Shown: positions 1-18,053, counted from the stretch's first letter. The stretch is DNA of 64,000 nt from Escherichia coli (GCF_044324785.1 NZ_CP172127.1), one strand, 5' to 3'. The notes: a model not told the origin generated them from the sequence alone. Made by a program: numbers and translations.

Positions 1-127
1 GTTATGATCGAGTGTGTTTCAAGAGTGTTTGCAACTCTGTTTTAAGGGCGAATGAAAAGGATTCGGACAGGATGACCGTGATTAATTTAACCCGGAAGCA
101 AAAGTTGATTTTCATTCTGATATGCCT

Positions 128-1252
128 TCAGTTTGTTAACGGACAAATCATGACCCGTTCATCAATGTTTGCGGGTAGCTCGCCTGGCGTGGGAACGCGT
201 TCACCCCGCTGAGCAGCCTGTGCCAGTGTGCGCAGCAAAAATACGCTGGCATGAGATATAGCCAGTTCCCGGGTTTCTGCACGGGTTTCAAGGTCGAAAT
301 CGTGCAGTGTCACGACAAACAGCCCGTTTCTGCACCCGACAGTTGCAGGGTAGGGAACAAAATAAGGTGAAATTTTGCTGGTCTGTTTACGCCTTGCATC
401 GAGTTTGCTGACCAGCTGATATGCCCGGAGATGCGTGTACCGTTTTAACATGTTCAGGGAGCGGTGGCCTGAAATAGCGGCAACTTCAATGACATTCAAT
501 GTACCAAGTTCGAAAAATCGGCTGATGGCTTCATGACGGAGATCGTGAAAATGCAGATTTTCTATTTTCAGGTCCAGAAGTGCGGTACGCCAGGCGCTTT
601 TGAAACCGGATGAGGTGTAACTGAACACATTGCCGTTTATCTGTTGTGGCAGAATTTGCAGGTAGTTGCGAGCTTTCCGGGAGAGTGGGACATCGCGTGG
701 TAAACCATTTTTCGTTTCAGGAAGATGCGCCACTCCGTGCTGCAAATCGAGGTGTTCCCAGCGTAATGTGAGAATTTCCCCCTGTCGCATTGCTGTTTCC
801 AGGGCCAGATGGAAGATAACGTAGAGCTGCTGATTTTTATCTCTGAAATAGCGGGAGAGTCGGCGTTCTTCGCCAGAAGTCAGGCGACGCTCTCGCCCAT
901 TACTGATTTTGGGTTTTCGGACCAGTTCAACAGGATTCATACGGCATGTCCCCCATTCCACACGGGCGATATTGAATAATGATGATAAAAGAGCAAGTTC
1001 AAGACGGACGGTGTTTCCGGTGATTTGACGCCCAGTTCGTGGGTTAATTTGAGCCAAACGCTGATCCCGGTAACTGGCGATATCAACGGTCGTGATTTCA
1101 TCCATATAGCGATCGGCCACAGGGTGACGTTTAATCACATTGACGCGATAAACCTCCTGCAGATGCCCTTTTTTATGGACGGAAACGGTTTTCAGGTATT
1201 TGTCCAGCGCCCGGTTGAGAGTCATTTTGCGAATTTTGATTTTTCGAAACAT
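128..1252 (-). CDS. rci: shufflon-specific tyrosine recombinase Rci (374 aa)
   Basis: Tyrosine-recombinase motifs in translation ([23 protein letters not shown]); lies immediately downstream of the pilV shufflon as in R64 and SPI-7. Start set to internal ATG at 1252 (MFRKIKIRK...); the 481-aa track ORF is an upstream extension that would run through shufflon repeat 1. Confidence 0.8.
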
Positions 1253-1314
1253 ATCGGCCTTCCACGATAAAAACGGGGAAGGTAGGAATAGTGAAACGGA
1301 AATGCAATATCGCC

Positions 1315-1333
1315 GTGCCAATCCGGTGTGTGG
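1315..1333 (+). repeat. shufflon 19-bp repeat 1 (gtgccaatccggtgtgtgg)
   Basis: Exact match to the repeat inside pilV (reverse complement of 2578..2596). Confidence 0.85.
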
Positions 1334-1705
1334 ATTGGCTTTGAATCCTACCCTGTGGGAAGCCCTATCCCATGGCCATCTGCCACTCCTCCACAAGGCT
1401 ATCTGTTGATGAACGGCCAGTCGTTTTCCTGTTCCCGGTATCCTCAGCTTGCCCGTGCTTATCCTGGCTGTAAATTGCCCGATCTGCGCGGTGTTTTTAT
1501 CCGTGGCTGGGATAACGGGAAGGGACTTGATGGTGATCGGAACAGACAACTCCTGAGTTATCAGGCCGATCAATCAGGCGTCTATCACGAACGTGGCGGA
1601 TGGCTGAAAGGGCATCATAGTGGTATGCCATACTGGGCACAGGGGAGTACCACAGAAATGCGTCCCAAAAATATTGCATTCAACTACATTGTTAAAGCCA
1701 GCTAG
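1315..1705 (+). CDS. silent alternative PilV C-terminal cassette A, phage tail-collar-like
   Basis: Open frame from repeat 1: [13 protein letters not shown]...[45 protein letters not shown], which resembles the conserved tail-fibre collar motif. No promoter or start of its own; expressed only after inversion. Confidence 0.6.
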
Positions 1706-1709
1706 GGAC

Positions 1710-2061
1710 TCACATCTGATAGGCATACACAGAGAAAACACCGTTACCACAGGCGTAATTTTGTGTTGGTCTGGAGATGATTTGATATGACGCTCCCACT
1801 GGCACGGCAAATGAAATAAATGCTGTCTTTCCGTAGGAGGGGTTATTGCTGGCATTCATACCAATGAAAGCGCCGTTCACATAGCCCTGAAGATTTGATG
1901 TGTTGGCGCAATCACCGCCACCGGCACCATTTCCACCGGAAGCGTACACAAACAAAGTTCCTCTGCCGTTATTTCTCCCGTTAAATGTTCCCCGGTGAGA
2001 ACCCAGATTGCTGTAACTTCCGTCAGGTGCACCAATCGTTCGCCACACACCGGATTGGCAC
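1710..2061 (-). CDS. silent alternative PilV C-terminal cassette A' (Gly/Asn-rich)
   Basis: Open frame on minus strand running from repeat 2 (CQSGVWRTIGAPDGSYSNLG...) to stop at 1710; convergent with cassette A. Confidence 0.55.
2043..2061 (-). repeat. shufflon 19-bp repeat 2 (inverted orientation)
   Basis: Plus strand reads ccacacaccggattggcac, the exact reverse complement of repeat 1. Confidence 0.85.
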
Positions 2062-2069
2062 GGAGGCCA

Positions 2070-2088
2070 GTGCCAATCCGGTTTGTGG
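2070..2088 (+). repeat. shufflon 19-bp repeat 3 (one mismatch: gtgccaatccggtttgtgg)
   Basis: Direct orientation; separated from repeat 2 by an 8-bp spacer. Confidence 0.8.
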
Positions 2089-2295
2089 CTTGGAGGCAAT
2101 AAAGTGAACTATTCTGCCTGTAAATGGTATGAAGCGACCTCCGCACATTTTATCGGTGGCAGAAGCGGAGGCTCTATTTATTACAAGCCGATTCAGTGCC
2201 CTGCCGGGTACGTCATGACAGGTACAAGAATGTACGGCATCGGAGATGGTGTTGATGAAGAGCACGTCGATGCTTACTGTTGCCCTTTTGGTTAG
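2070..2295 (+). CDS. silent alternative PilV C-terminal cassette B' (Cys-containing)
   Basis: Open frame from repeat 3: CQSGLWLGGNKVNYSACKWYEATSAHFIGG...CCPFG; convergent with the currently expressed pilV C-terminus. Confidence 0.55.
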
Positions 2296-2331
2296 ATTCC
2301 GAGGGCCGGTATTTAATTTTCTCCCGTTGGC

Positions 2332-3534
2332 TTATTTCTCACAGATTGCTATAGCCTGGAAACAACTCAGGGAGCCAGAGCCAGTAGCAATCCACCGATT
2401 GTTTTTGTAATCAGGGTAACTACCATCTGGTGAGTTGTATCCGTTATGGACCCACTGGGATAACCTGTAGCCGCCGGAGACCAACTTACTCCCCGATGGG
2501 CATACCGCGTAAGACGATGTCTGAAAGCACCCATTCCCGCCGGATACTGTGAAACGCTCTTTTTTGTCACTGTTTTGCCACACACCGGATTGGCACGAAA
2601 GTATTGCCCCTTTACTGTCGCGGCCTACAAGTCCGTCCGGTGAGCAGGAAGTACCTGCGGTGGCTGTTTTTTCCAGCTGTAAATACTCACCCGTGGAAAG
2701 ACGCCCCTCAGACCGGACAGTTCCACCACTGACTTTTCCTCCTTTGAGCTCTCCTTCGGTTGTGATCCCTTTGTTGTTAACAGCACGTATCCATTGGCTG
2801 TCCGTCATGGTGAAGCCGCCACCATTTGGATGTAACCAACGATTTGATGTGACATCGCCTGAAAATCTGGCGTTTTTACCACTGGCTTCATTGATATTGG
2901 TGATGCTGTTATTATTCATATCAATGCCAGTATGCATTCTGTTTAAATCGGGTCTTCCCTGAACGCTGTAGCGGTAAAGCCGATCGCTTTCCTCCAGATC
3001 TTTTCCAGCCATTCGCATGGCGATATGCCCCTTGTTGCAGGTAATCTGATAATTACTTCCCAGATCGGTCCAGCCGCCAAAGGCACCTGTAACGGAATTA
3101 TTCTGGAGCATAAAACCACCGAGTCCATTAATCTGGCCCGCTATGCGACGTAACCCATCTTCTTTAATATCCTGTCCTCCGGTTGTGCAGGTAAGTGCTT
3201 CCAGACGACCGGATAAATTATTTTTTCTGATACCGGTAATATAGCTGTGTCCAAAGGGGGAGCGGGAAAAACCGTTGTTCAGATATCCCTGCTGAATTAA
3301 TTCATTTACCGTGATGGTTTTACTGGAAAGTGAGCTGGTTTTATCAGCCACATAATTCTTTATTGCATTATTATATTCATCAGCATGTAAAGCCGCACTT
3401 TGATAAAGTTGTTCATTCAGCCAGTCTTCAATTTCTGAATAAATCATTGGCGTGGCGATACCAATTACTATCAGGCCTGCCAGAATTTCAAGCAGAATAA
3501 AACCTTTATCGTCATCGTGTCTGAATTTTTTCAC
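2332..3534 (-). CDS. pilV: type IVB minor pilin/adhesin PilV, current shufflon isoform (400 aa)
   Basis: Prepilin-like N-terminus (MKKFRHDDDKG/FILLEILAGLIVIGIA); C-terminal third lies inside shufflon segment B; GTG start overlapping the pilU stop. Confidence 0.8.
   Translation of the reverse strand: MKKFRHDDDKGFILLEILAGLIVIGIATPMIYSEIEDWLNEQLYQSAALHADEYNNAIKNYVADKTSSLSSKTITVNELIQQGYLNNGFSRSPFGHSYITGIRKNNLSGRLEALTCTTGGQDIKEDGLRRIAGQINGLGGFMLQNNSVTGAFGGWTDLGSNYQITCNKGHIAMRMAGKDLEESDRLYRYSVQGRPDLNRMHTGIDMNNNSITNINEASGKNARFSGDVTSNRWLHPNGGGFTMTDSQWIRAVNNKGITTEGELKGGKVSGGTVRSEGRLSTGEYLQLEKTATAGTSCSPDGLVGRDSKGAILSCQSGVWQNSDKKERFTVSGGNGCFQTSSYAVCPSGSKLVSGGYRLSQWVHNGYNSPDGSYPDYKNNRWIATGSGSLSCFQAIAICEK
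2578..2596 (-). repeat. shufflon 19-bp repeat 4, inside pilV at the constant/variable junction
   Basis: Plus strand reads ccacacaccggattggcac; in pilV it encodes CQSGVW. Confidence 0.85.
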
Positions 3535-4181
3535 GTGAATATCTCCGATGTGTGGATAACGGAATCAGGGAAGAGGGTCAGCACATACAGGGACCCGCAG
3601 AGAAACGGGGCAAACGGCAGCGCCAGCTGGCGTCTGCGACGGCAGAAAATGAGGATAAACAGAAATGCTCCGGAGGCTGCGGCGGTGATTATGAGTGGAG
3701 TGTGTTGCGGTTGCGTCCACATTGCGATCCCCGCAATCAGGAACACATCACCAAGGCCGAGCGCTTCCGTCCCTTTCGCTGCCAGAAAAATGCGTCGTAA
3801 CAGGTATATCATGCCGAACCACAGTGACGCGTTGAGCAGGGCATGAGCCAGTGAGTCCTGGCTGTATCTGAACGCTGCGCCCAGAATAATAAGAGAAAGC
3901 GTGAATATCCGGGGAAGCCGACAGACAGCAATATCCGTCAGCGTCATTACAGTTAATAATCCCGTCAGAATGGAAAGGAATAACAGTCCTGTCGCGTCAA
4001 CACCATATGCACCGTTGAGGCAAATGCTCAGGACAGCCAGAAGACAACAGATGCACACCGCAGCGTTGTGTGGGCGGGTATTGTGTACTTCTGATAAATA
4101 TACTGTGGCGGCGCTGTATGAAAGATACAGAATTGCCGCAAGGACAATCAGGATAATGCATATCGGGAGTAATTCAGACAC
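3531..4181 (-). CDS. pilU: prepilin peptidase (216 aa)
   Basis: Polytopic membrane protein in the expected pil-operon position; GTG start. Assigned by synteny with the R64 thin-pilus operon and hydrophobicity profile. Confidence 0.65.
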   Translation of the reverse strand: MSELLPICIILIVLAAILYLSYSAATVYLSEVHNTRPHNAAVCICCLLAVLSICLNGAYGVDATGLLFLSILTGLLTVMTLTDIAVCRLPRIFTLSLIILGAAFRYSQDSLAHALLNASLWFGMIYLLRRIFLAAKGTEALGLGDVFLIAGIAMWTQPQHTPLIITAAASGAFLFILIFCRRRRQLALPFAPFLCGSLYVLTLFPDSVIHTSEIFT

Positions 4182-4193
4182 AGTTACCTCAGC

Positions 4194-4670
4194 TTAATCT
4201 TTTCTGAAATACCGGTTGTGGATTATTCGGGCATATATCATGCGCCGGGCTGTGTTATTTTTGCTGAATCCTGCGTTGTAACTGCCAAGGCATTCCCAGT
4301 TAACGCCGCAGCGTTGAAAATGGCGGGCCAGTATCCAGGCACCGGTATGAATATTCAGGCAGGGCTTTTTAAGCAGTTCATCCTTGTTTTTAATGACGCC
4401 CAGTTTTTTCAGTTCAGGAATATGCACTGAATTAATCTGCATTATTCCGTAATCCGTACTGATGATTTTTCCGGATTTGTTTTTATTGTGATTTATCGCA
4501 GTGGCGACCAGGCCGCTTTCCTGCTGTGCAATGGTTTTCAGAAGCTCAGGGGCAATCAGGTAACGTTTTCCGGCCTGAATAAAACAGGAATCGAGATGAT
4601 TATTATTCATCACAGATGCGATTGATGTGTGACTGAATAAAAGCAGGACAGAGAGATATAACCATTTCAT
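4194..4670 (-). CDS. pilT: lytic transglycosylase, SLT domain (158 aa)
   Basis: Signal peptide followed by SLT-like motifs (TIAQQESG, YGIMQIN); in R64-type operons pilT is a transglycosylase, not the retraction ATPase. Confidence 0.75.
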   Translation of the reverse strand: MKWLYLSVLLLFSHTSIASVMNNNHLDSCFIQAGKRYLIAPELLKTIAQQESGLVATAINHNKNKSGKIISTDYGIMQINSVHIPELKKLGVIKNKDELLKKPCLNIHTGAWILARHFQRCGVNWECLGSYNAGFSKNNTARRMIYARIIHNRYFRKD

Positions 4671-4728
4671 TATGATAATCCCGGCAGTGACAGCATCCTC
4701 TGGTATTTAAGGATGCTGTCCGGAAACA

Positions 4729-5265
4729 TTAGCTGTTTGTTTCAAGGGTGATGTTATTTTTGTCGTTACTACATACTGTTACGGGATCCACAGTAGCCGG
4801 GGCGGTATTCATGATTTTGGTAAACATGGATGAACTGCGCAGGCTGTTAATGAGTTCCACGCAATTTTCTTTCGGTACATTATTGCTGGTAATCGTATAA
4901 CCATACTTATCTGCTGTTGCCTTAATGGTGACATCACCGCCCCAGGCATTTTTGGCCTTGTTACCACCGGCGATCATATCGGCCGGCAGGGAACCACTCT
5001 GCGTCAGCGTTTTGATATAATCACTGCTGGTATATTGTCCCTGGAACTTGTACTGCTTCATTTTTGTTGCAATAGTCTGCAGGTTTTTCAGTTCACGCTG
5101 GTTATCACTGGATGACATTGTGCTGGACATCTGACTTATTGCGAGAGATACCACAATACCGATGATAATCAGTGCACCGGCAACTTCCAGTAAGGTTAAA
5201 CCTTTATCCTCCTCTTTCTCTTTTTTTAAAGCAAAATAAGAATAAAGACATGATCTGAAGTTCAT
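4729..5265 (-). CDS. pilS: type IVB major prepilin (178 aa)
   Basis: Long leader then G/LTLLEV cleavage motif and hydrophobic alpha-helical N-terminus; AGGAG RBS upstream. Confidence 0.8.
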   Translation of the reverse strand: MNFRSCLYSYFALKKEKEEDKGLTLLEVAGALIIIGIVVSLAISQMSSTMSSSDNQRELKNLQTIATKMKQYKFQGQYTSSDYIKTLTQSGSLPADMIAGGNKAKNAWGGDVTIKATADKYGYTITSNNVPKENCVELINSLRSSSMFTKIMNTAPATVDPVTVCSNDKNNITLETNS

Positions 5266-5314
5266 ATATCACTCCTGGTTTATGGGATGTTTCAGAAATA
5301 TTCTGTATGCGGGA

Positions 5315-6415
5315 TTATTGTTTCAGCATGTCGCTGATACTGTAGATGGCAGATATCATGTTAAGAATAAAAAAGAAGACAAAACCTCCTGATATACCGG
5401 TAATAATTAATCCCATTCGTTTTACCCGTTTTTTTGCCTCTTCCAGCCACTGATCGGCATAGAGTGCCATGGTTGCCACTCTGTCCTCCCTTTCGGAGTT
5501 CAGGAGCAGTTTATTGATGCATATTCTGGACGGAAAATCGTAACCGGAATTTCGCATTGCTGTGGCCAGATTCTGACCGGATAATACATGTTTTCGTATT
5601 GCCTGAATTCTCTCCTTTAACCATTTATTCTTTTCTGCACCTTTTTCCATTCGGAGCAGCGCCTGCGAAAGAGGAATATTAATCTGCAGCATGGATGAAA
5701 TACTGAACAGATAATTCACCCCGTGTAAGGTCTGATACAGTGACCAGGGGGGAGCCTTGTCCAGCATCCTCCGGCCGGGGCCGGTATACCGGCTGAATGA
5801 AAAACGGATCAGAAGCGTCAGGGCGAAAATGGTCCCACAGAGCCAGAATCCGTACCCGATGAAAAATTCCGACATGCCGGCAAGCAATTTCATCTGGAAT
5901 GACCATTTATCTTCTGAAGCAAACGCACTGACGATGGGGATGATACGGGTATGGGCGTTGTACATATTCACCACACAGAGCGAAAGCAGCAGAAGGGGGT
6001 AGAGGCAGACGGCAATGAGGCTGGATGTCATTTCCCGCCGGGCTTTAACGGTTCTGGCCACCTGGAAAAGGGCGTCGGCAATATTTCCGCGCTCTTCCCC
6101 GTTTCTGATTAACGTGGCTTCCTCCGGTGGCACCCAGGTTAACAGGGCACCGGATAACATGCCGCTGGCTTTGATGGAATCGATGCATTCTTTTGCCAGA
6201 AAATACATGCCGGATGTGCCTTTCTTTTCACCAAAATCGGTTTCGATCTCGCAGAGAAATTCGAGTGCACGCAGGGACGGCGTTCCGTCACGTATCATGC
6301 CGCCCAGGGCTTCGTAGAACTCCACCCGGTTCAGGGCAAAGGTTTTTCTGGCTATCCAGACAGTCAGTGCTGTCAGCTCAATGTCGGTGTTGTTGAGTTT
6401 TTCCAGAAATCTCAT
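5315..6415 (-). CDS. pilR: type IV pilus inner-membrane platform protein, GspF/PilC-like (366 aa)
   Basis: Start set to ATG at 6415 (MRFLEKLNNTD...), immediately after the pilQ stop; size agrees with R64 PilR. Confidence 0.7.
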   Translation of the reverse strand: MRFLEKLNNTDIELTALTVWIARKTFALNRVEFYEALGGMIRDGTPSLRALEFLCEIETDFGEKKGTSGMYFLAKECIDSIKASGMLSGALLTWVPPEEATLIRNGEERGNIADALFQVARTVKARREMTSSLIAVCLYPLLLLSLCVVNMYNAHTRIIPIVSAFASEDKWSFQMKLLAGMSEFFIGYGFWLCGTIFALTLLIRFSFSRYTGPGRRMLDKAPPWSLYQTLHGVNYLFSISSMLQINIPLSQALLRMEKGAEKNKWLKERIQAIRKHVLSGQNLATAMRNSGYDFPSRICINKLLLNSEREDRVATMALYADQWLEEAKKRVKRMGLIITGISGGFVFFFILNMISAIYSISDMLKQ

Positions 6416-6416
6416 G

Positions 6417-7937
6417 TCAGTGCAGCAGCGTATAGCTGTCCTCGTCGATGGGAGAGATGTAATGGGCCGCCAGCGGATCAACCTGCCCGCTGTTGATTTT
6501 TCCCAGCAGATGCTGATTTCGTGTCATGCCGCCCAGCTCCCGGTGCCAGTATGTTCTGGCCTCAATACGCCCCTTTTCCCGGTACAACTGGAAAAAACGC
6601 GCATCCGGGGAGATGACTTCTGCGATCACCGTTCGTCCTGTCACGCCACGCCAGCAGTGCGGGCAGCCTTCATGATTTCGCAGATATACCTGGTCCGGGT
6701 TGCAGACGCTTTCCACCAGGCGCCGTTCATCATCCGTGCGCTCGGTAGCCACCTCATGCCAGGGGCGACGGCAGTGCGGACATATCAGCTGAACCAGACG
6801 CTGGCTCAGCAGGCCAATGAACAGTTGCGGGTCGGCAATCATCCTGGCCTGTACCCCCTCCATCTCAAGACGTTCGAGGATGTTAATCGGGTCGTTCGCA
6901 TGGATGGTGGTCAGCATCAGATGCCCGGTCATGGCGGCTTTTATTGCCGTAATGGCGGAATCGTGGTCACGGATTTCGCCGTTCAGGATCCCGTCAGGGT
7001 CAAGACGCAGTGCTGATTTAATGGAGTCCACCCAGCCCTGTGCGGAATCCATGACGGCGGTCTGAATGGCACCGGGTATACGGCCCTCTGGCGGGGATTC
7101 AATGGTGAACAGCCTGCGACGGGGCAGAAGAATACCGCCGGTATTGTTGAAGCCGTACTGTTCAAGGTACGCCGCAGAGGCGGTTCTCAGCGTGGTGGAT
7201 TTTCCTGAACCTGTTGGTCCTGAGAGCGTGATAATACCTTCAGGGCGCTGCAGAATACGGCGCAGGGTGCGCTCCTGCTCAGGGTGGTAGCCCAGCATGC
7301 TGAAGGTCGGGATTTGCTGACTGTCATCCTTGATCAGACGGAGCACAGCATAGAGGCCGCCCACGCAGGGATAGTGGGAGTAGCGTGCACCAAACAGACC
7401 GGCCAGTTTCAGGTACTGCTCTGAAAGACGCGCATCCTGAGGCACCCCGGGATCAAACTGTGTGCCCTTGATGACGTCGGTCATGCCGGAATAGGTGGCC
7501 CCCAGTAATTCGAGGCCTTCTTCTTTCCGGAGGATATCGAGCACTTCCAGTTCGCCGTGAACCCGGGCTTCCACATAGGTGAAGTCCGTGTTGTCTCGTC
7601 CCGGGGTCATATGAAGGTCTGAGGCATCCAGTTGAGCGGCTTTTCTGATGTAATCAAGAACTTTTCTTTGTACTGTGTTGATCCCTCCGTCGGATAAAAC
7701 GCCCGGTGCACGTTCCGTATTATTGCTGTTCAGGGTTGCGATAACGTCAAGAGTGGTAAAATCGAATTTGCTGATTTTTCCCGGATAGCGGGAGCGTAAG
7801 AGCGTCAGGTAACGTTGTACAGAGGTGATGTGCTTCTTCGCCTCGACGACTTTCACCCTGATTTTTCCGTCAGCGTCATGCTGAATTGCGACGAAATCAC
7901 GAATATCTTCAGGAGGCAGTTCGATAGTCTCTGGCAT
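6417..7937 (-). CDS. pilQ: type IV pilus assembly ATPase, GspE family (506 aa)
   Basis: Walker A (LSGPTGSGKSTTL) and tetracysteine motif (CPHC...CPHC). Confidence 0.85.
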   Translation of the reverse strand: MPETIELPPEDIRDFVAIQHDADGKIRVKVVEAKKHITSVQRYLTLLRSRYPGKISKFDFTTLDVIATLNSNNTERAPGVLSDGGINTVQRKVLDYIRKAAQLDASDLHMTPGRDNTDFTYVEARVHGELEVLDILRKEEGLELLGATYSGMTDVIKGTQFDPGVPQDARLSEQYLKLAGLFGARYSHYPCVGGLYAVLRLIKDDSQQIPTFSMLGYHPEQERTLRRILQRPEGIITLSGPTGSGKSTTLRTASAAYLEQYGFNNTGGILLPRRRLFTIESPPEGRIPGAIQTAVMDSAQGWVDSIKSALRLDPDGILNGEIRDHDSAITAIKAAMTGHLMLTTIHANDPINILERLEMEGVQARMIADPQLFIGLLSQRLVQLICPHCRRPWHEVATERTDDERRLVESVCNPDQVYLRNHEGCPHCWRGVTGRTVIAEVISPDARFFQLYREKGRIEARTYWHRELGGMTRNQHLLGKINSGQVDPLAAHYISPIDEDSYTLLH

Positions 7938-7946
7938 GATGGCACC

Positions 7947-8408
7947 TCACGGGAGTAGCGTCTGCCTGTTGCCGTTGTATTCCAGAATCACACTGTCCGG
8001 TGTGATTTGTTCCACCATGAACAGTGTACCGGGTAATGCCTGTCCGGCCCTGACATCAGTTTCAGTTCCTCCGGGGAGTATGACGCGTGCTGAAAGCTGT
8101 GGCTGAATACCAAAGATTTCTTTCAGACGGGGGGATGAAAATGCCTGTGAACCGGAGGAGGTGCCAGCCGCATTTTCCGGCTGATGTCCCGTGACAGAAC
8201 CGGAAACCGGGGAGATACCCTGTTCCAGTGTCCGCAATTCATGACGAATTTTTTCTCTTGCCAGCATCGCTTCATACAGGGCGGTTTCTTCCTGAATCTG
8301 CTCAATCTGCAGTTGTTTGTTCTGTGACGCGTCATTTTCGTTGCCGGCCACTGCCATTGCCGGTAACAGCAGGGCTGCAATCAGCAGCGCTTTTGTTTTA
8401 TCGTGCAT
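7947..8408 (-). CDS. pilP: pilus assembly protein PilP-like (153 aa)
   Basis: Internal ATG at 8408 gives a signal-peptide N-terminus (MHDKTKALLIAALLLPAMAVA); size matches R64 PilP. Confidence 0.65.
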   Translation of the reverse strand: MHDKTKALLIAALLLPAMAVAGNENDASQNKQLQIEQIQEETALYEAMLAREKIRHELRTLEQGISPVSGSVTGHQPENAAGTSSGSQAFSSPRLKEIFGIQPQLSARVILPGGTETDVRAGQALPGTLFMVEQITPDSVILEYNGNRQTLLP

Positions 8409-9693: not shown

Positions 9694-9716
9694 TGACCCG
9701 TTCAAGGGAACCTCCG

Positions 9717-11342: not shown

Positions 11343-11531
11343 GCAGAAATCCTTGTGTGAAACGTGAAAACAGTGAGCAGAGCAGGGAGGGCAGAAGCGC
11401 TTCGGGACTGAAGTCTGCGCGTGATGGCGATATATCCGCGGGACATGACCGCGGCCGGATATGCAGACTTCAGTCCACAGGCTCCTCACACTGTGCGGGA
11501 CAGCGAAGGTTAACGGTGCAGTGATGTCCCG

Positions 11532-11969
11532 CTAGTTGAAATAAACAAATGCGCTGTCAGGAATGACGGACGGCACGCTGATACCGGTGTCCTGACCTGT
11601 GGTGTTCAGCAGTCGCCGCCCCTTCACCCGGCCTGCCAGCGCGGTTTTGTGGGTGATGTCTGCCAGCGCACCTGCAAGCCCCGGGCGGTCATCCTGCCAG
11701 ACAAAGACCCGCTGTCCGGCGATGATATGGCGGGTACCGTATACCGGGCGGAAACCCGTGGCGGTGACGGGGAGCGTGCCACCCCCCGTGCGCTCAGCCG
11801 GATGGGTGTACAGCCGGTCGTTAATGCCGTTCATGAGGCGGACCATCTCCCACGCACGTTCACGCATCTCCGCCTGCTCGCTGTACACGGTGACCCGGTG
11901 GGTACTGCTGTTGTGAAACCAGGTCAGCGCCACGGTCAGGGCCATGACCAGGGAGAGCGACCAGCCCAT
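11532..11969 (-). CDS. pilM: pilus assembly protein PilM-like (145 aa)
   Basis: Start at ATG 11969 (MGWSLSLVMALTVALTW...), directly after the pilL stop. Assigned by synteny and size. Confidence 0.6.
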   Translation of the reverse strand: MGWSLSLVMALTVALTWFHNSSTHRVTVYSEQAEMRERAWEMVRLMNGINDRLYTHPAERTGGGTLPVTATGFRPVYGTRHIIAGQRVFVWQDDRPGLAGALADITHKTALAGRVKGRRLLNTTGQDTGISVPSVIPDSAFVYFN

Positions 11970-11971
11970 GG

Positions 11972-12697
11972 TCAGTCTCCCGGTCTGTCGCTGACGTGCA
12001 CCACACACTGCGTGCTGTTGATGGCTGCATACAGCGGCGTCTGTGCGTCCTGATAGAGACGGAAGAGTTCACTGAGCGCGTGGCGGAACTCGCCGGTGAA
12101 ATGCAGCGGCGCATCGATGCTGTAATTGAGTCCGGGGTTCTGCCAGGCCAGCTGCCAGGTGCCACCGGCCTGACAGGGAACGGCGGCCACCCACTGCTCA
12201 AGACCGGCACGCAGCAGGGTTCCGCGGGCAAGAGTCCAGGTGGTCCGTGCATGCGCCGGTTGCGGCATGTTTGCTGATTTTTCCGCGGTTTTTTCCTGCA
12301 GACTGGTGGTGCCCGGGGTGGCCTGAGACGGACTGAACAGGGTGTTCCGCTCAATACGTACATGCTTCTTCTCCGTGTCGGTGATGGCGCGGAGCTGATA
12401 TTTTTTCAGCATGCGTTCCGTAACGTAATTCCACTGGTCATTTCCCTTCCATGACACCGTGCGGGGCGGCCTGACATCCGGTGCAATGTCAAATGTCCAT
12501 CCCGGCGGTATCAGTTGCTGCATGGCTTTTTTCAGTGATAACCCTTTACCGTCCCGGGGAATAAATTTCAGTGCTCCCGGAGCGCTGCTGACCGTGGACG
12601 ATGAGGGTGCACTGACCTGAGAAGGTGACGGTGCAGCAAAAAGTGGAACAGAAAATGCCAGCAGCGGCACAATAAGAAGTGGTTTCAGTGGTGTCAT
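11972..12697 (-). CDS. pilL: pilus assembly protein PilL-like, secreted (241 aa)
   Basis: Signal peptide (MTPLKPLLIVPLLAFSVPLFAAPSPS); first large gene of the operon. Assigned by synteny. Confidence 0.6.
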   Translation of the reverse strand: MTPLKPLLIVPLLAFSVPLFAAPSPSQVSAPSSSTVSSAPGALKFIPRDGKGLSLKKAMQQLIPPGWTFDIAPDVRPPRTVSWKGNDQWNYVTERMLKKYQLRAITDTEKKHVRIERNTLFSPSQATPGTTSLQEKTAEKSANMPQPAHARTTWTLARGTLLRAGLEQWVAAVPCQAGGTWQLAWQNPGLNYSIDAPLHFTGEFRHALSELFRLYQDAQTPLYAAINSTQCVVHVSDRPGD

Positions 12698-12749
12698 ATT
12701 ATGGTCCTGTATCGCACATTTTTTGTGTTTCCTGAGCCTGTATCCGGTT

Positions 12750-12968
12750 TTATTCCGGCTGAACTCTGCTGCATGAGAATGCGGTGACGTTCACTTTCAC
12801 ACTGAACGATTTACCGGCCTCTTTTTCTTTTGAAAACAGCCTGACGCATTCAGGCTCAGTCATCGGTGTGTTCTGAAAACGCACCCAGGATACCGGTGCA
12901 CCACCAGGCTTCAGGATGGTGGCTTCAATCCGGTATTTATGCGGTGTGGTGTCTGTTGTTGCTGTCAT
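12750..12968 (-). CDS. small hypothetical protein (72 aa) leading the pil operon
   Basis: ATG preceded by AGGAG at about 6-nt spacing; co-directional with pilL, about 50 bp upstream. Confidence 0.45.
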   Translation of the reverse strand: MTATTDTTPHKYRIEATILKPGGAPVSWVRFQNTPMTEPECVRLFSKEKEAGKSFSVKVNVTAFSCSRVQPE

Positions 12969-13005
12969 TCATGGCTCCTGTTGCCGGTTTCCGGTCCCGG
13001 AAAAA

Positions 13006-13047
13006 CAGGCGACATCAGCAACAAGGGGAAAAACGCGATGTCGCCTG
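13006..13047. promoter_or_regulatory. perfect 11-bp inverted repeat (caggcgacatc ... gatgtcgcctg) in the divergent control region between the pil operon and the helicase operon
   Basis: Seen directly in sequence; candidate operator or stem-loop. Confidence 0.35.
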
Positions 13048-13494
13048 AAAGGTACTGGTGCAGCGGTGCGTTGTACGGACGCAGGTCCGCACAACCGGAA
13101 ATACACGGGATGATTCGGTCAGTGTATTTTCGTGTTGTGCGCCTGTACTGATACGGCAGGGTGTGATGAGTGTTACCTGTGGCTGCAGGCGCGGCACGTC
13201 ACTCATAACGTAGCATTCTGTTTCCTCCTCAGCCCGGCTTCAGGGCGTTGCCGCAATACCCGATTGTTAAAGAGCCTTACCGGCATGGTGTCCGGTGTCA
13301 CCGCGCGGATAACGATACGGCGGTGTCTGAAGGGATGATGCTGCGGCGCTCTGCACATGGCGACGATTAATTCTTTTTGTGTTTCTGAAAATTTATTGCC
13401 GGGAAATTTCTGGTGTGACAGGGTGAATTAATTCTGGTCAGCGACGCTCCTGAGAAGGCAGAGTGCGCTGACATTTCGTGAACGGAGGAATGCC

Positions 13495-15003
13495 ATGTCC
13501 CTGAATCCCACCGATGAACAGTCAGCCATCATTCACTGGCAGGGGGAAAAACTGGTGGTGAATGCCTTTGCCGGTACAGGCAAAACCAGCACACTGGTGC
13601 AGTTCGCCGCAGCCTGCCCTGAGAGCCGGATGCTGTATCTGGCCTATAACCGCGCGATTCGTGATGAGGCGGAGCGCCGGTTTCCCTTTAATGTGGAGTG
13701 CAAAACCTCCCATCAGCTGGCGTATTCGCGGTTCGGAAAGCATTTCCGGCATCGTCTGGTGCCGGGGCTGTCAGTGACGGATGTAGCGAGAAAACTGAAC
13801 ACCCGCTACTGGACGCTTGCCCGTGTTGCCATGACCGCGCTGAATCAGTTCATCTGTTCGGCGGACGTGGCGCCCGGAATGCAGCATATGCCGCCTCCCG
13901 ACGAGATGAAGGGCATGTCGCCACAGGATGCGCTGCGTGCCGTGCAGATCCTCTGGCATGAAATGAGCAATCCGGATGGCAATTTTCCGGTCACTCACGA
14001 CACCTATCTGAAGCTCTATCAGCTTTCCTCACCGGATCTGTCACGCAGGTGGGATACGATCCTTTTTGATGAGGCCCAGGATGCGAATCCGGTGACGTCC
14101 GCACTGGTGCTGGGGCAGCGGTGCAGGGTGGTACTGGTTGGCGACCGTTACCAGCAGATTTATCGTTTTCGTGGTGCCAGCAATGCACTGTCGCATCCGG
14201 CACTGAACGGGGCGGACCGTCTCTGGCTGACGCAAAGTTTTCGTTTTGGTCCTGCCGTGGCCGGGGTGGCCAGCCAGTTACTGAAGCGTGCCGGCGAGAG
14301 CCGTGAGGTGACCGGCAGGGGCGGGGATGATGAAGTGCTGACGGCAGGTGAAATGCGTGCGCGCGTGAAGGCAGGGAAGATGACCGGTCACAGGGCGATA
14401 CTGAGCCGGACGGTGGCCGGTGTGATTGGCACCGCACTGATGGCGGCAATGCGTGGCAGGAAGGTTTACTGGGTGGGGGGCATTGAAGGCTACAGAACGG
14501 AGGCACTGGAAGATCTTTACTGGTTTCAGATGGATATGCCGGAGCGGATGCACAGTGACAGACTGCGGAAGGACTACCGGGGTTTTGACGAGTACCGTCA
14601 TATTGCGAAGGTGACGAAGGATGTGGAAATGAATCAGTCCATTCGTCTGCTGGAGCTGTGCTTTCCGCTGCCGAAGAAACTCGAACTTCTCAGAAAGCAC
14701 ACCGTCACGAATGAACAGGAGGCGGATATCACGGTCTCAACGGCACACCGCAGTAAGGGACTGGAGTGGTCACTGGTGGTACTCGATGATGATTTTCAGG
14801 ATATCACCGACCCGCTGATAAGCGAGCAGGAGCGGCGGGATGAAACCAATCTGCTCTATGTGGCGGTCACCCGGGCGCGCAGAACGCTGGTTCTCAATGA
14901 ACTCATGCAGCAGCTGACGGAAGCTGCCGGCGATGGTGGTGCACCCGGAAACGCGCCGGTGCAGGGGAAGGAAGACGATGGTGTGGAGGGAGAGGATGTT
15001 TAA
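13495..15003 (+). CDS. UvrD/Rep-like superfamily-1 DNA helicase, short form (502 aa)
   Basis: SF1 motifs in order: Walker A (AFAGTGKTS), DEAQD (motif II), VGDRYQQIYRFRGA (III), SFRFG, TAHRSKGLEW (V), LYVAVTRAR (VI); GGAGG RBS. Confidence 0.8.
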   Translation: MSLNPTDEQSAIIHWQGEKLVVNAFAGTGKTSTLVQFAAACPESRMLYLAYNRAIRDEAERRFPFNVECKTSHQLAYSRFGKHFRHRLVPGLSVTDVARKLNTRYWTLARVAMTALNQFICSADVAPGMQHMPPPDEMKGMSPQDALRAVQILWHEMSNPDGNFPVTHDTYLKLYQLSSPDLSRRWDTILFDEAQDANPVTSALVLGQRCRVVLVGDRYQQIYRFRGASNALSHPALNGADRLWLTQSFRFGPAVAGVASQLLKRAGESREVTGRGGDDEVLTAGEMRARVKAGKMTGHRAILSRTVAGVIGTALMAAMRGRKVYWVGGIEGYRTEALEDLYWFQMDMPERMHSDRLRKDYRGFDEYRHIAKVTKDVEMNQSIRLLELCFPLPKKLELLRKHTVTNEQEADITVSTAHRSKGLEWSLVVLDDDFQDITDPLISEQERRDETNLLYVAVTRARRTLVLNELMQQLTEAAGDGGAPGNAPVQGKEDDGVEGEDV

Positions 15004-16525
15004 GCGGTTCAGACGTATGCTGCCCGGCACAAAGGGCACGGAGCCTGGCGTGGTCGCGCCGGTGATACCGGCAGGGTTTTATGCGCCGCTCACGGCAGAG
15101 GCACTGTTATCACCAGAGCACAGGGAGCTGAGGCTCAGGCAGGTCTGGGATAACAATCCGATGCCCCGTGATGTATACGACAGGATGTGCCTTGAACCAC
15201 TCAGCCGGCTGCTGCTGAACACCCAGAACGTCCCGGCAACACGGGAAGGACGGTGGTCCCGTGCCGGTGGATTTGGTGATCTGACGGTACTGTACACCAC
15301 GTATGCCGTTCGTCTGGCAAGAGGGTACATGTTTCCACCGGATGCGACCCCGGAAGACCAGGCGGCTCAGGCCGCAGTCTGGCATGCGGTGATTTTCTGG
15401 TCAGCGCTGTTTTACCACCTGCCCCTGCTGGCGCACCTTGAGGGGGAACTGCTGAGTGGGCGGGGCTGGCAGCCAGGAATTTCTGTGCCTGACGAACCTT
15501 TCCGTTTCCGGTTCAGGAAGACGGCGCCGCAGGGTACGGAAGCGCAACAACTTGCGGCCCTGACTGCCGGCACGCTGTTACCGGACGGCGCAACGGCCTG
15601 GCTTGTGACGGCGCCGGGCGCACTGCAGAATCTGGCCGGGGCGCTCTGGCATCAGCATCCCGGGATGGCGCTGATTCGTGATGTGCTGCAGGAAGCGGCA
15701 AGGCAGACAGAGAGTCCGCTGAATACCTGCGCTGTCACTGCGCCGGTTACTGCGGAGGCTTCAGCAGACATTCGTCCTGCTGACCCGGTGGTGACCGGCA
15801 GCACGGACAGTGTGGTGGCAGTCACTGAGGTGCAGCCGGCAGAGGAGGTGAAGACTGAGAGCGTGCAGACAGAGACTGAAGGTGGTGGTGAGTCCGCCGG
15901 GGCGTCAGAGGTGCCGTCCGCACAGCAGGAACTGACGGTTCAGACAGCGCCAGTGGTGACGGCAGATGATGAAGCGGTCAGTGCTGCTCCTGCGGATCAG
16001 GACACAGCAATGCTGCTGAGTCTTTTTTCAGCAGATGAGTCCGAAACTGCTGAACCTGAAAACAGTATTAAATCGTCAGCCGATCGGGACGGCCAAAGTG
16101 ACGTACCGGCAGTACAGGGAGAACAAACCAGCGTTATTTATCCGGAGGGCGAAGCAGATACGGAAGAGGTGGATTTTATTACTTGGCTGAAATCGGGGTT
16201 GTCATCGGGGATGATTGAAATAAATACACCTTCCGCGAGAGTGCATTGTATTGCGGGGTATGTTTTTTTGTGTGTCCCGGATATTTTTTATCTGTATCAG
16301 AAAATGACGGGAAGCCGTCGTGACCGCAGGAGTGTTCAGGCGTTGTTTGAACGTTCCCGTATTCACAAAATCCGGGAAGGTGAGCGTTTTTTCAGCCTGC
16401 ATCTGTATAGTGTACCTGACAGAACAGGGAGTTATAAAGCTGTAAGCGGATATCTGGTTAAAAGCCGTTATCTGTGTGGTTATAACGCAGTGCCCGGGGA
16501 CAGTGAATACATTGCTTTTCCATAA
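14996..16525 (+). CDS. hypothetical 509-aa protein: N-terminal domain, long acidic low-complexity linker, conserved-looking C-terminal domain
   Basis: ATG overlaps the helicase stop (ATGTTTAA) with GGAGGG RBS; no Walker A and no HD motif found by eye; alternative starts at 14933 or 14978. Confidence 0.6.
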   Translation: MFKRFRRMLPGTKGTEPGVVAPVIPAGFYAPLTAEALLSPEHRELRLRQVWDNNPMPRDVYDRMCLEPLSRLLLNTQNVPATREGRWSRAGGFGDLTVLYTTYAVRLARGYMFPPDATPEDQAAQAAVWHAVIFWSALFYHLPLLAHLEGELLSGRGWQPGISVPDEPFRFRFRKTAPQGTEAQQLAALTAGTLLPDGATAWLVTAPGALQNLAGALWHQHPGMALIRDVLQEAARQTESPLNTCAVTAPVTAEASADIRPADPVVTGSTDSVVAVTEVQPAEEVKTESVQTETEGGGESAGASEVPSAQQELTVQTAPVVTADDEAVSAAPADQDTAMLLSLFSADESETAEPENSIKSSADRDGQSDVPAVQGEQTSVIYPEGEADTEEVDFITWLKSGLSSGMIEINTPSARVHCIAGYVFLCVPDIFYLYQKMTGSRRDRRSVQALFERSRIHKIREGERFFSLHLYSVPDRTGSYKAVSGYLVKSRYLCGYNAVPGDSEYIAFP

Positions 16526-16555
16526 CAGCACCGGGTCATTCATCCGTTCAGGGAG

Positions 16556-17668
16556 ATGTATTCCCCTATGAAGAAAGATGTCGAAAAAATAACGTGGGAG
16601 GAATTACTCTTTGAGTACTTCCTTGAGAAAAATCTTAAACCTGATACTGAACACAGCTACCGCAAAGTTGTCCGTCTGTTTGATAAGTTCCTGGGCGGTG
16701 ATTCCTGGCCCGGCGATGTCACACCGAGAGACATTCAGCGATGGCGACGTCATATGCTTAAAGATCAGGGGCGTTCAGTAAACACCTGGAATAACAGAGT
16801 GTCACATCTCCGACCGCTCCTGGCGCTTGGGATCAAGAAAAAGTGGTTACCACAGACGGAAAATCCGCTTGATGGCACTTCAGTGCCCGGGGCATCAAAA
16901 CAGAAAAAAACGCTCACTGATAAAGAGATGGTCAGGATTTACCGTACAGTTCAGGCTTTTGCTGAAGCTGAGGCCAATAAGATGGTGATCTGTGACAGGC
17001 GGCGCAATGCGATGTACCCTGCATGGTACTGGCTGATCGTGCTGGATACGCTGCGCTTCACGGGGATGCGTTTTAACCAGCTGAAACATATCAGGCTGAA
17101 GGATATTCATGAGGATGAGGCGGTGATTACCCTTCAGCTGGAAGGGAGTAAAACCCGACGTGAATGGCGTGTGCCGATTGTGGAATCGTTACGACTTTCA
17201 CTGAAACATCTTATTGAGTGCGCCCGTGTCAATGGTGCGTCGGATAATGACTATCTCTTTGATGTCTGCCTGTACAGCGAGCATTACAGTCCCGGGAAAT
17301 ACCAGTACTGTGCCAAAAGAGCGCATCAGTCGGTCAAATCTTTTTTCCGCAGACTGAGCCGTGAATGTGGTTTTTTTGTCTCGTCACACAGATTCAGACA
17401 CACACTGGCAACAAAGCTGATGGCGGCACCGGAGCGTAATCTGCACATGGTCAAATCCATTCTGGGGCACAGGAGTGTTGCCACCACCATGGAGTATATT
17501 GATTTTTCGGTGGAAGTTGCTGCTGAGGCACTGGAGGCTGAACTCGGTTTATCCACGGATGAGGCGACAAAAAGACGGATTAAAGAGGCGAAAAAACGCC
17601 GTGAGGCCAGTACCGGGAAAAAGGAAAAACAGGAAAGTTCTGGAGGGGAACTTTCTGACAAGGAATAA
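16556..17668 (+). CDS. int: tyrosine-type site-specific integrase (370 aa)
   Basis: Catalytic-domain motifs (RFRHTLATKLM; LGHRSVATTMEYIDF); about 200 bp from the tRNA-Phe 3' end. Confidence 0.85.
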   Translation: MYSPMKKDVEKITWEELLFEYFLEKNLKPDTEHSYRKVVRLFDKFLGGDSWPGDVTPRDIQRWRRHMLKDQGRSVNTWNNRVSHLRPLLALGIKKKWLPQTENPLDGTSVPGASKQKKTLTDKEMVRIYRTVQAFAEAEANKMVICDRRRNAMYPAWYWLIVLDTLRFTGMRFNQLKHIRLKDIHEDEAVITLQLEGSKTRREWRVPIVESLRLSLKHLIECARVNGASDNDYLFDVCLYSEHYSPGKYQYCAKRAHQSVKSFFRRLSRECGFFVSSHRFRHTLATKLMAAPERNLHMVKSILGHRSVATTMEYIDFSVEVAAEALEAELGLSTDEATKRRIKEAKKRREASTGKKEKQESSGGELSDKE

Positions 17669-17872
17669 ACATGCTTGACATCGGACCAGAATGGTGTAAG
17701 CATTTTTGCGTATGCGAGAGCGTGACACCTGTTACCAGCAGGTGCCACGCTTGAGGATACGATACTGAAACCACAGTGTAACCAGACTTACACGGAGATT
17801 TCGTTATGACCGGATCCTGTATTAGACGCCCGTTAAGGATCTCATCCCTTAACCAGCGTACTTTGATGCGTT

Positions 17873-17948
17873 TGGTGCCCGGAGGCGGAATCGAACCACC
17901 GACACGGGGATTTTCAATCCCCTGCTCTACCGACTGAGCTATCCGGGC
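17873..17948 (-). tRNA. pheV: tRNA-Phe (anticodon GAA), island integration site
   Basis: Reverse complement reads GCCCGGATAGCTCAGTCGGTAGAGCAGGGGATTGAAAATCCCCGTGTCGGTGGTTCGATTCCGCCTCCGGGCACCA; position downstream of yqgA matches pheV. Confidence 0.9.
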
Positions 17949-18053
17949 AACGGGGCGCATTAAACCTGATTCGCCTCGTCTCGTCAATCAAATTTCTTCA
18001 ATTTAGTGCAGACTGCACAATCTATCATCACTTTGCCGCTATTGCACACATTG

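Follow-up and report, generated by a model that had tools for sequence, protein, structure and literature searches.

A probable ICEEc2-type element at the pheV tRNA-Phe gene of Escherichia coli, with a type IVB pilus operon and a two-segment shufflon

The left part of the 64,000-nucleotide stretch of Escherichia coli DNA analysed here (the window) very probably belongs to an integrative conjugative element (ICE) of the ICEEc2 type, from the pKLC102/PAGI-2/SPI-7 family, inserted in pheV; this tRNA-proximal part comprises positions 1-17,872 together with the 3'-terminal 50 nucleotides of the adjoining tRNA-Phe gene. Alignment with near-identical copies in other genomes shows that positions 1-17,872 would make up the last ~20% of an element of 78-87 kb. 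All 16 genes within these positions are intact, among them a DNA-mobility operon that ends in an integrase gene, a complete pilus operon and the recombinase gene of a shufflon that has been rearranged between otherwise identical copies. The element is ordinary and of an already known kind, an ICEEc2-type element having been described before at pheU/pheV in E. coli (PMC6761156, PMC11537424, PMC13127887).

An accessory region bounded by a hybrid tRNA-Phe gene

ARAGORN places a tRNA-Phe(GAA) gene, the pheV copy, at 17,873-17,948 on the minus strand (Rfam tRNA, 69.1 bits, the sole Rfam match in positions 1-20,000). The megablast alignment to K-12 MG1655 begins precisely at the 3' end of this gene (17,873), and from there to position 64,000 the window is collinear with K-12 from 3,110,441 down to ~3,065,800, at 96-99% identity. 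The gene order of the right flank (yqgA, speC, nupG and onward) is that of the K-12 pheV site; left of 17,873, megablast gave no alignment to MG1655. An island inserted at pheV, with a right side collinear with the K-12 pheV region, had been proposed in a first-pass annotation, and both statements are borne out by the tRNA call and by where K-12 homology starts. Far from being present at this site in all Escherichia including K-12, the block is missing from K-12 and from 99% of E. coli, with at least 80% of 7,650-17,872 present in 36 of 5,426 complete genomes. As judged by this distribution, positions 1-17,872 are accessory DNA in E. coli. The proposal that all DNA left of the tRNA 3' end is non-core stands with respect to these positions and needs amending at the border itself, where the last 50 nucleotides of the tRNA gene also serve as the att repeat.

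This repeat (17,873-17,922, minus strand) corresponds to tRNA-Phe positions 27-76; its counterpart at the other end would be expected to read GGGGATTGAAAATCCCCGTGTCCTTGGTTCGATTCCGAGTCCGGGCACCA or a near variant of it. The proximal copy is read in the window and the distal copy, a direct repeat that closes the element, only in the relatives from strains GF60 and APEC E19035. In E19035 the distal repeat has no mismatch to the native K-12 tRNA-Phe 3' half; in GF60 it has 6 mismatches (of 50) to the proximal repeat and 2 to the native tRNA-Phe 3' half. The GF60 distal repeat was recovered by blastn-short only, and a 30-nucleotide query from the tRNA 3' end, run over upstream loci of GF60 with up to 3 mismatches, gave no match. 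Each of the five ICE-occupied tRNA-Phe genes examined has a GGTGG/CCGCC T-stem, as against CTTGG/CCGAG in the native gene, and the two base-pair changes are compensatory. The element-derived T-stem bases lie at 17,884/17,885 and 17,899/17,900, and the stretch at 17,901-17,922 is the likely crossover site, all within the att repeat. On this sequence evidence, the pheV tRNA-Phe gene is a hybrid whose 5' part is chromosomal and whose 3' part came with the ICE; its cloverleaf fold has an energy of -37.1 kcal/mol, compared with -34.1 kcal/mol for the K-12 tRNA.

Mobility genes, pilus operon and shufflon

The DNA-mobility operon lies on the plus strand and begins with a gene for a UvrD-like helicase (13,495-15,003), which has partial UvrD/Rep/PcrA matches and is named 'UvrD-helicase domain-containing protein' by PGAP. 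It is followed by traI (14,996-16,525), the MOBH relaxase of the ICE, whose product scores 193.1 bits with TIGR03760 ('integrating conjugative element relaxase, PFGI-1 class'; curated cutoff 161.4) and matches MobH at E = 6e-21. A helicase pair had been suggested here; one UvrD-like helicase is retained, and the second member is this relaxase. The integrase listed in the first-pass annotation is encoded by int (16,568-17,668), which adjoins att and stops 204 bp short of the tRNA 3' end. Its product is a Xer-like tyrosine recombinase (Pfam Phage_integrase, E = 2.5e-18) that has SAM-like N-terminal domains only and no arm-type DNA-binding N-terminal domain; its best NCBIfam neighbours are XerA, XerC and XerD, all below cutoff.

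Divergently from these genes, the minus strand encodes the pilus operon, for which the expectation of a complete R64/SPI-7-type type IVB set holds: NCBIfam and Pfam together find everything from pilL to pilV, and all 11 genes are intact and in R64 order. The series starts with pilL (11,972-12,697), encoding a TcpQ-domain lipoprotein (Pfam TcpQ, E = 6e-13; 26% identity to R64 PilL), pilM (11,532-12,008; Pfam PilM, E = 8e-12) and pilN (9,717-11,342), encoding the type IVB pilus secretin, a lipoprotein (415 bits with TIGR02520, cutoff 288). It continues with pilO (PilO2; 8,398-9,693; full-length Pfam PAP_PilO match, E = 1e-35), pilP (7,947-8,408; TIGR03021 pilP_fam, 103 bits against 34.65), the gene for the assembly ATPase of the GspE/PilB family, pilQ (6,417-7,937; NCBIfam GspE, E = 4e-50, and PilB, E = 3.5e-46), and that for the inner-membrane platform protein of the GspF/PilC family, pilR (5,315-6,415; NCBIfam GspF, E = 2e-14; 99% to IncK2/Z PilR). 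The major type IVB prepilin is encoded by pilS (4,729-5,265; PGAP 'type 4 pilus major pilin'), which has N-terminal pilin/pseudopilin matches and is 98% identical to IncK2/Z PilS, a lytic transglycosylase by pilT (4,194-4,670; NCBIfam IagB-like, E = 6e-35; 60% identity to R64 PilT) and the prepilin peptidase by pilU (3,531-4,181; Pfam Peptidase_A24, E = 4.6e-11). The last gene, pilV (2,332-3,534), encodes the pilus tip adhesin, now joined to the B- C-terminus to give a protein of 400 amino acids (Pfam Shufflon_N, E = 2e-51 and 9e-33; in relatives PGAP names it 'shufflon system plasmid conjugative transfer pilus tip adhesin PilV'). PilV, PilU, PilO, PilM and PilL have no NCBIfam match, and Pfam matched all five.

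Upstream of pilL, where R64 (reference NC_005014.1) has PilI and two more ORFs, pilI, pilJ and pilK are absent, and a small DUF1187 gene (12,750-12,968, minus strand; called by PGAP on an identical copy, ORF intact) and a 0.5-kb divergent intergenic region take their place. The cluster is therefore of the shorter, island-type pilL-pilV form and not a full R64 operon. A scan of the pilL-uvrD intergenic region for promoters and terminators returned signals at shuffle level. Several short inverted repeats lie within it, at 13,006-13,141, and could be part of an oriT or operators.

Downstream of pilV lies the shufflon (1,315-2,596), which had been predicted together with rci and is present as four 19-bp sfx sites (GTGCCAATCCGGTnTGTGG) at 1,315-1,333 (+), 2,043-2,061 (-), 2,070-2,088 (+) and 2,578-2,596 (-), bounding the invertible segments A (1,334-2,042) and B (2,089-2,577). 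The 13-nucleotide core of these sites is identical to that of R64 (GTGCCAATCCGGT). There is one alternative PilV C-terminus per sfx site, all four open and in frame, and two of them, A- (74%) and B+ (84%), have homologues in R64. The shufflon-specific tyrosine recombinase is encoded by rci (128-1,252, minus strand; 374 amino acids), which is 75% identical at the protein level to R64 Rci and 94% identical to its IncK2/Z plasmid counterpart; it has weak Xer-type NCBIfam matches, and PGAP calls it 'site-specific integrase' in GF60. Two segments and four PilV variants distinguish this shufflon from that of R64, which has four segments and in which we found six sfx sites, and from that of SPI-7, which is a single invertible segment. 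The segments are ordered and oriented differently in the window, GF60 and E19035, giving three arrangements between flanks that are 100% identical. Rci has therefore been active.

Full-length relatives and rival explanations

How much of an element is represented here? The GF60 copy is 99.8% identical and sits, as in the window, at pheV in an element of 87,207 bp; the E19035 copy is 100% identical over 10,223 bp and occupies pheU in an element of 78,191 bp. The same sequence is consequently found at two tRNA-Phe genes, and both full-length copies end at ParA beside the 50-nucleotide repeat of the tRNA-Phe 3' end. According to PGAP, their leftward backbone includes ParA/ParB, an SPI-7-type island DnaB helicase, STY4528/STY4534 replication proteins, TraD, TraG and ICE proteins of the PFL_46xx/TIGR037xx kind. 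The type IV secretion set (TIGR03745-03759, TraD, TraG) and the ParA/ParB/DnaB-PI genes are known from these two copies and lie beyond the window. Kinship to SPI-7, YAPI and the PAPI-1 family of ICEs, as first suggested from the pilus genes and their setting, is supported by the way in which the near-identical copies run on into a full ICE backbone, and so is the early view that the left boundary and the transfer genes are to be sought beyond the window start. The window ends about 60-70 kb before the far end of the element, and genes located there could be deleted or disrupted in this genome.

That last point bears on the best of the rival explanations, which we nevertheless judge improbable, namely that the region belongs to a decayed, non-self-transmissible island remnant like SPI-7 in S. 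Typhi, with a pilus that acts mainly as an adhesin or self-aggregation factor. Besides the location of the left part beyond the window, such a reading can draw on the GF60 copy, whose cargo of iha and restriction-modification systems is accompanied by IS21 and IS3 insertions and frameshifted genes or pseudogenes, because of which some copies appear to be decaying, and on the AR_0089 copy, which has an internal stop in pilT. Against it stand the intactness of all 16 genes in the window, the 100% identical copy at another tRNA-Phe gene in another strain, a shufflon that is still rearranging and the experimental transfer of a close relative in strain CH4804 (PMC13127887), whose copy is 98.6% identical.

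An ICE of the ICEEc2 type remains the preferred reading, and several known systems resemble it in different respects. ICEEc2 itself is said to come from the avian E. coli strain BEN374 and to belong to the pKLC102/PAGI-2 family, reportedly as described by Roche et al. 2010 (J Bacteriol 192:5026). The present element resembles it in host (E. coli, often of poultry origin), in tRNA-Phe integration and in having a Xer-like integrase, a trio of DNA-mobility genes and a gene cluster for a type IV pilus. The original description reportedly concerned pheU; the copy here is at pheV. For ICEEc2, an IntKX-type integrase, the gene trio and a pilus cluster implicated in transfer have been documented (PMC6761156, PMC4458695, PMC8138268), and pheV and pheU are both reported hotspots (PMC11537424, PMC13127887). 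Cargo and size probably differ, the relatives identified here being 78-87 kb long and carrying iha and restriction-modification systems, and identity with the type element is something that we infer.

With SPI-7 of Salmonella Typhi, YAPI of Yersinia pseudotuberculosis, CTnscr94 and ICEKp2 the element shares tRNA-Phe integration and a pilL-pilV type IVB operon. SPI-7 also has rci, and GF60/E19035 backbone genes are named by PGAP after SPI-7 loci (dnaB-PI, STY4528, STY4534), but no Vi or SopE cargo was seen here. The Pseudomonas elements PAPI-1, pKLC102 and PFGI-1 have in common with it a PFGI-1-class MOBH relaxase, a Xer-like integrase beside the tRNA att site, a type IVB pilus, which the Pseudomonas elements need for transfer (PMC5297154), and, as seen in the GF60/E19035 relatives, ParA at the opposite end. 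No shufflon or rci is known from these elements. They also differ in belonging to another host clade and in integrating at tRNA-Lys (PMC6761156) instead of tRNA-Phe. The plasmid R64 matches the element in gene order from pilL to pilV, followed by the shufflon, rci and then, in the relatives, traE and traF; unlike R64, the element is chromosomal and ICE-borne, and its Pil proteins are 24-60% identical to those of the plasmid at the amino acid level.

A closer link to plasmids is seen in one block (4,310-7,626), which covers pilT, pilS, pilR and most of pilQ and is 96-100% identical, in 300-nucleotide bins against pTB-nb2, to the pil genes of IncK2/Z plasmids, with most bins at 98% or more; it is found at 95% or more in 128 plasmids. 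At 7,627-7,980 there is no alignment to the IncK2/Z pil genes, and beyond it identity is just 70-73%, with 29-66% protein identity from pilP to pilL. Of the four PilV cassettes in the shufflon, three are again 98-100% identical to plasmid copies, whereas pilU and the constant region of pilV are much more divergent, as are pilP-pilL. In the relatives, IncI-type traE and traF adjoin rci. The juxtaposition of a near-identical pilT-pilQ block and divergent pilP-pilL genes indicates that a pil module was exchanged between an ICE and an IncK2/Z plasmid; the proximal half (pilL to pilP) is, judged by the same identities, ICE-specific. These identity steps are the entire basis of the claim. The drop in GC content (44-50% in 1-6,000, compared with 55-65% in 6,000-16,000) was considered as a further sign of mosaicism and rejected, as the IncK2/Z operon shows the same gradient from pilL to pilT.

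Could the whole region then be a chromosomally integrated fragment of an IncI-complex (IncK2/Z-like) conjugative plasmid? The similarity of pilT-pilQ and of rci (93% to IncK2/Z plasmids), and the traE- and traF-like genes that follow rci in the relatives as in R64, would fit such an origin, which is nonetheless very unlikely: pilP-pilL are too distant from their plasmid counterparts, the relaxase is of the ICE class MOBH and not MOBP as in IncI plasmids, integration is site-specific at a tRNA gene and involves an att repeat and an integrase dedicated to it, and the rest of the backbone in the relatives is the ICE set of TIGR037xx genes, accompanied by neither an IncI replicon nor Dot/Icm-like tra genes other than traE/traF. 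That the pilus operon is cargo of a classical P4-type-integrase pathogenicity island (GI-pheV/PAI type) is hardly credible, even though pheV is a hotspot for such islands (PMC11537424) and GF60 and E19035 carry them distal to the ICE, given that the N-terminus of Int is SAM-type and Xer-like, the arm-type domain (PGAP) being confined to the P4-like integrases of the neighbouring islands, and that int is co-oriented with and directly follows the relaxase gene.

Proposed mobility cycle and biological meaning

How might such an ICE enter and leave its tRNA gene? We envision that the Xer-like integrase would recombine the tRNA gene with a 50-nucleotide attP that mimics the 3' portion of tRNA-Phe, by a crossover in the stretch of the anticodon arm and variable loop. 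The tRNA would be kept intact and gain the ICE-supplied T-stem, and its native 3' half would be moved to the element's opposite end. After excision, TraI, assisted by the UvrD-like helicase, would process the circular form for transfer through the type IV secretion system encoded leftward, beyond the window. The product of the pilL-pilV operon would be a thin type IVB pilus keeping donor and recipient in contact, and inversion of the two segments by Rci at the four sfx sites would yield four versions of the PilV C-terminus and thereby a varied recognition of recipients. Relatives offer precedents: ICEEc2 can excise from tRNA-Phe, and a part in mating has been ascribed to its pilus (PMC6761156, PMC4458695); the integrases of PAPI-1 and ICEEc2 both fall in the IntKX subgroup (PMC8138268); and pheV/pheU ICEs of this type are able to transfer and bring about Hfr-like transfer of the chromosome, with CH4804 among the donors (PMC13127887).

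For the genome at hand, the sequence suggests that it is a carrier of an ICEEc2-type conjugative element that is probably active, in an E. coli lineage that is likely to be avian or extraintestinal. Its annotation gains an exact right boundary, a hybrid tRNA, a relaxase call and four PilV variants. Elements of this kind move between pheV and pheU and across enterobacterial genera, together with their cargo, and recent work has found that they mobilise long tracts of chromosome in an Hfr-like manner (PMC13127887). Current understanding is unchanged by these observations, the ICE-plasmid mosaic in the pil operon being the sole less expected part. A tentative extension, less likely than not, is that the thin-pilus module is not a fixed part of the ICE and is swapped with co-resident IncK2/Z (IncI-complex) plasmids, a process that could proceed by homologous recombination or by recombination at sfx sites. 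If such exchange still took place, the ICEs of poultry E. coli and the plasmids found with them would draw on one pool of recipient-recognition adhesins, and an ICE would take on the mating specificity of the last plasmid that it had met.

Insertion site and hybrid tRNA gene

The accessory block (window 1-17872) ends at the sole tRNA gene that ARAGORN finds in the window, tRNA-Phe(GAA) at 17873-17948 (minus strand), with which Rfam concurs (69.1 bits). When the whole window was aligned with K-12 MG1655 3063000-3112900 by megablast, homology began precisely at the 3' end of pheV: window 17873-64000 is collinear with K-12 at 96-99% identity, whereas no match was found to the left of 17873. By the K-12 annotation the right flank is the pheV neighbourhood, with yqgA, speC, nupG, mltC, mutY and onward. 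At least 80% of window 1-18000 is present in just 28 of 5426 complete E. coli genomes, and at least 80% of window 7650-17872 in just 36. Given the K-12 boundary at the tRNA and this rarity, the block is real, sharply bounded and accessory. The proposal of an island at pheV, non-core on its left and K-12-collinear on its right, is thus borne out, and K-12 MG1655, checked for the block, is without it.

Two strain differences lie in the K-12-like flank. Between speA and speB, window 44437-45168 encodes a predicted 243-aa lipoprotein absent from K-12 there (alignment gap 44291-45227). Between tktA and cmtB, a 314-aa ORF at 49345-50289 (minus strand), likewise absent from K-12 (gap 49300-50552), looks by eye like an SPFH/band-7 (prohibitin-like) membrane protein.

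The tRNA-Phe gene itself differs from K-12 pheV at positions 49, 50, 64 and 65 (window 17900, 17899, 17885 and 17884), which turns the T-stem from CTTGG/CCGAG into GGTGG/CCGCC by two compensatory base-pair changes; both versions fold into a cloverleaf. The variant T-stem occurs in all five tRNA-Phe genes examined that are occupied by an integrative conjugative element (ICE), whether at pheV or at pheU and whichever of two integrase types the ICE encodes, and in relatives the displaced distal repeat retains the native T-stem. On the simplest reading, the variant bases would be supplied by the ICE, whose attP would bring along a tRNA 3' half of its own; the strands would then be exchanged inside the 22 nt common to both versions (tRNA 27-48, window 17901-17922).

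Gene content and parent element

Adjacent to the tRNA lies a tyrosine recombinase gene, int (16568-17668, plus strand), with Pfam Phage_integrase and SAM-like N-terminal domains and Xer-type nearest NCBIfam families. It is preceded by genes for a 509-aa MOBH relaxase, TraI (14996-16525, plus strand), and a UvrD-like helicase (13495-15003, plus strand). TraI matches MobH and also TIGR03760 ('integrating conjugative element relaxase, PFGI-1 class') with 193 bits, above its curated cutoff of 161. Of the helicase pair named in the first-pass annotation, the UvrD-like member therefore stands and the second is a relaxase. On the minus strand follow a small DUF1187 gene (12750-12968) and a pilL, M, N, O, P, Q, R, S, T, U, V operon that runs from 12697 down to 2332 with no interruption, then the shufflon (1315-2596) and rci (128-1252), whose product is 75% identical to R64 Rci. 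PilN (TIGR02520, 415 bits) and PilP (TIGR03021, 103 bits) score above their curated cutoffs; Pfam supports PilO, PilM, PilL (TcpQ domain), PilU (Peptidase_A24) and PilV (Shufflon_N); and for PilQ, PilR, PilS and PilT the matches are, as expected, to ATPase, platform, pilin and transglycosylase families, respectively. PGAP gives the same gene names in the 99.8% identical copy of E. coli GF60. The complete operon, shufflon, rci and integrase were all found as claimed.

Short inverted repeats (arms of 11-14 nt) cluster at 13006-13141, between the divergent pil operon and uvrD-traI-int, and may serve as an operator or belong to an oriT. A shift in gene coordinates places a 9-bp length difference from GF60 within window 8398-9717; in both the window and APEC E19035, pilO is 1296 nt long, as against 1287 nt in GF60.

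What lies beyond the window can be read from these two strains. Leftward of the block, GF60 carries traE-like and traF-like genes, a cargo that includes restriction-modification systems, toxin-antitoxin pairs, IS elements and iha, and a complete ICE conjugation set (TIGR03745-03759 proteins, TraD, a TraG N-terminal-domain protein and a conjugative transfer ATPase). It also carries topoisomerase III, Ssb, 'STY4528' and 'STY4534' replication proteins, ParB, a 'SPI-7-type island replicative DNA helicase' and ParA, directly past which a 50-nt sequence repeats tRNA-Phe positions 27-76 in direct orientation and delimits an element of 87,207 bp. E19035 matches window 7650-17872 at 100% identity over 10,223 bp; its 78,191-bp element lies at pheU, beside dicD, dsbD and cutA, and has a distal repeat identical to the native tRNA-Phe 3' half. 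Judged from these continuations, the window appears to hold about the last fifth of a pKLC102/PAGI-2/SPI-7-family ICE, of a type that has recently been in both tRNA-Phe genes, pheV and pheU. The suggested kinship to SPI-7/PAPI-1-family ICEs is upheld by the backbone of both copies. In both strains an older island, with a P4-type integrase, lies on the far side of the ICE from the tRNA, which places ICE and island in tandem at one tRNA gene; the older island carries leoA in GF60 (locus L003, 25089-26508) and is a pap/tia island in E19035 (locus L010, 14684-16193).

Roughly half the near-identical ICE copies cease to match at window 16055, past which they have another TraI C-terminus and a 329-aa integrase 47% identical to that of the window; they still lie at pheV or pheU, with the same T-stem variant. 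This switch, between copies otherwise at least 99% identical, spans window 16055-17872 and, in strain AR_0089, 12897-14700 of locus L007, and is also seen at loci L011 and L012.

Shufflon variation and exchange of the pil module

Four 19-bp Rci recombination (sfx) sites, GTGCCAATCCGGTnTGTGG, lie at 1315 (+), 2043 (-), 2070 (+) and 2578 (-) and share an identical 13-nt core with the sfx sites located in R64. Between them lie two invertible segments, A (1334-2042) and B (2089-2577). The four sites lead, in frame with pilV, to four open alternative C-termini, 68-123 residues long, that follow a common CQSG(V/L)W motif; the window arrangement yields a 400-aa PilV with the B- tail. The segment order is rci, A+, B+, pilV in the window, rci, B+, A+, pilV in GF60 and rci, B+, A-, pilV in E19035. 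Because the flanks of these differing arrangements are 100% identical, the comparison provides direct evidence that Rci has very recently been at work on the segments. R64 contains homologues of tails A- (74% identity) and B+ (84%), and an IncK2/Z plasmid matches three of the four tails at 98.5-100% identity; for B-, no counterpart was found in R64 or in the IncK2/Z plasmid compared.

The similarity to IncK2/Z plasmids changes in steps along the operon. Against plasmid pTB-nb2, window 4310-7626 (pilT, pilS, pilR and most of pilQ) shows 96-100% nucleotide identity in 300-nt bins, most of them at least 98%. Identity is 68-88% in 3110-4309 (pilU and the constant part of pilV) and 70-73% in 7981-11187 (pilP to pilN), and 7627-7980 (the 5' end of pilQ) does not align. 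Protein identities to the IncK2/Z plasmid are high for PilR (99%), PilS (98%), PilT (98%) and PilQ (89%) and low for PilP (59%), PilO (60%), PilN (66%), PilM (39%) and PilL (29%). The 4310-7626 segment occurs at 95% identity or more in 128 plasmids in PLSDB. Just left of window position 1, the GF60 traE-like and traF-like genes (locus L001, 790-2915) are 94% identical to those of the IncK2/Z plasmid, and the order rci, traE, traF is that of R64. For a more distant pheU ICE, in FDAARGOS_1300, identity is 96% from pilV through pilP but just 75-79% in uvrD, traI and int, and isolate ECCNB12-2 harbours both pTB-nb2 and an ICE copy. Together, these observations indicate that pil modules of the ICE and of IncI-complex plasmids have recombined. 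GC content is uninformative on the direction of exchange, because its gradient along the operon is the same in ICE and plasmid. The traE/traF-like genes are of IncI type, on an ICE with another kind of T4SS, and probably travelled with the pil module in the exchange.

Mobility and standing of the element

How might such an element move? As cited in PMC6761156 and PMC4458695, ICEEc2 was described at a tRNA-Phe gene of avian E. coli BEN374, is excisable, and has a type IV pilus implicated in mating-pair formation. The integrases of ICEEc2 and PAPI-1 form the IntKX subgroup (PMC8138268), and pheV and pheU are ICEEc2 hotspots (PMC11537424). A 2026 study reports that such ICEs of clinical E. coli transfer and that, at pheV or pheU, they drive Hfr-like chromosome mobilisation (PMC13127887); one of its donor strains, CH4804, has a 98.6% identical copy at pheU. 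By analogy, we envision that Int would excise the element, that TraI, assisted by the UvrD-like helicase, would nick the DNA for transfer via the T4SS encoded beyond the window, and that the thin pilus would make mating contacts, with Rci diversifying its PilV tip.

Apart from the relaxase labelled as a helicase, the first-pass observation and its interpretation were both correct. The family to which the element belongs was described in 2010, its annotation is a matter of routine, and dozens of public genomes hold near-identical copies. Only the mosaic of ICE and plasmid sequence in the pil operon may be worth a short follow-up.
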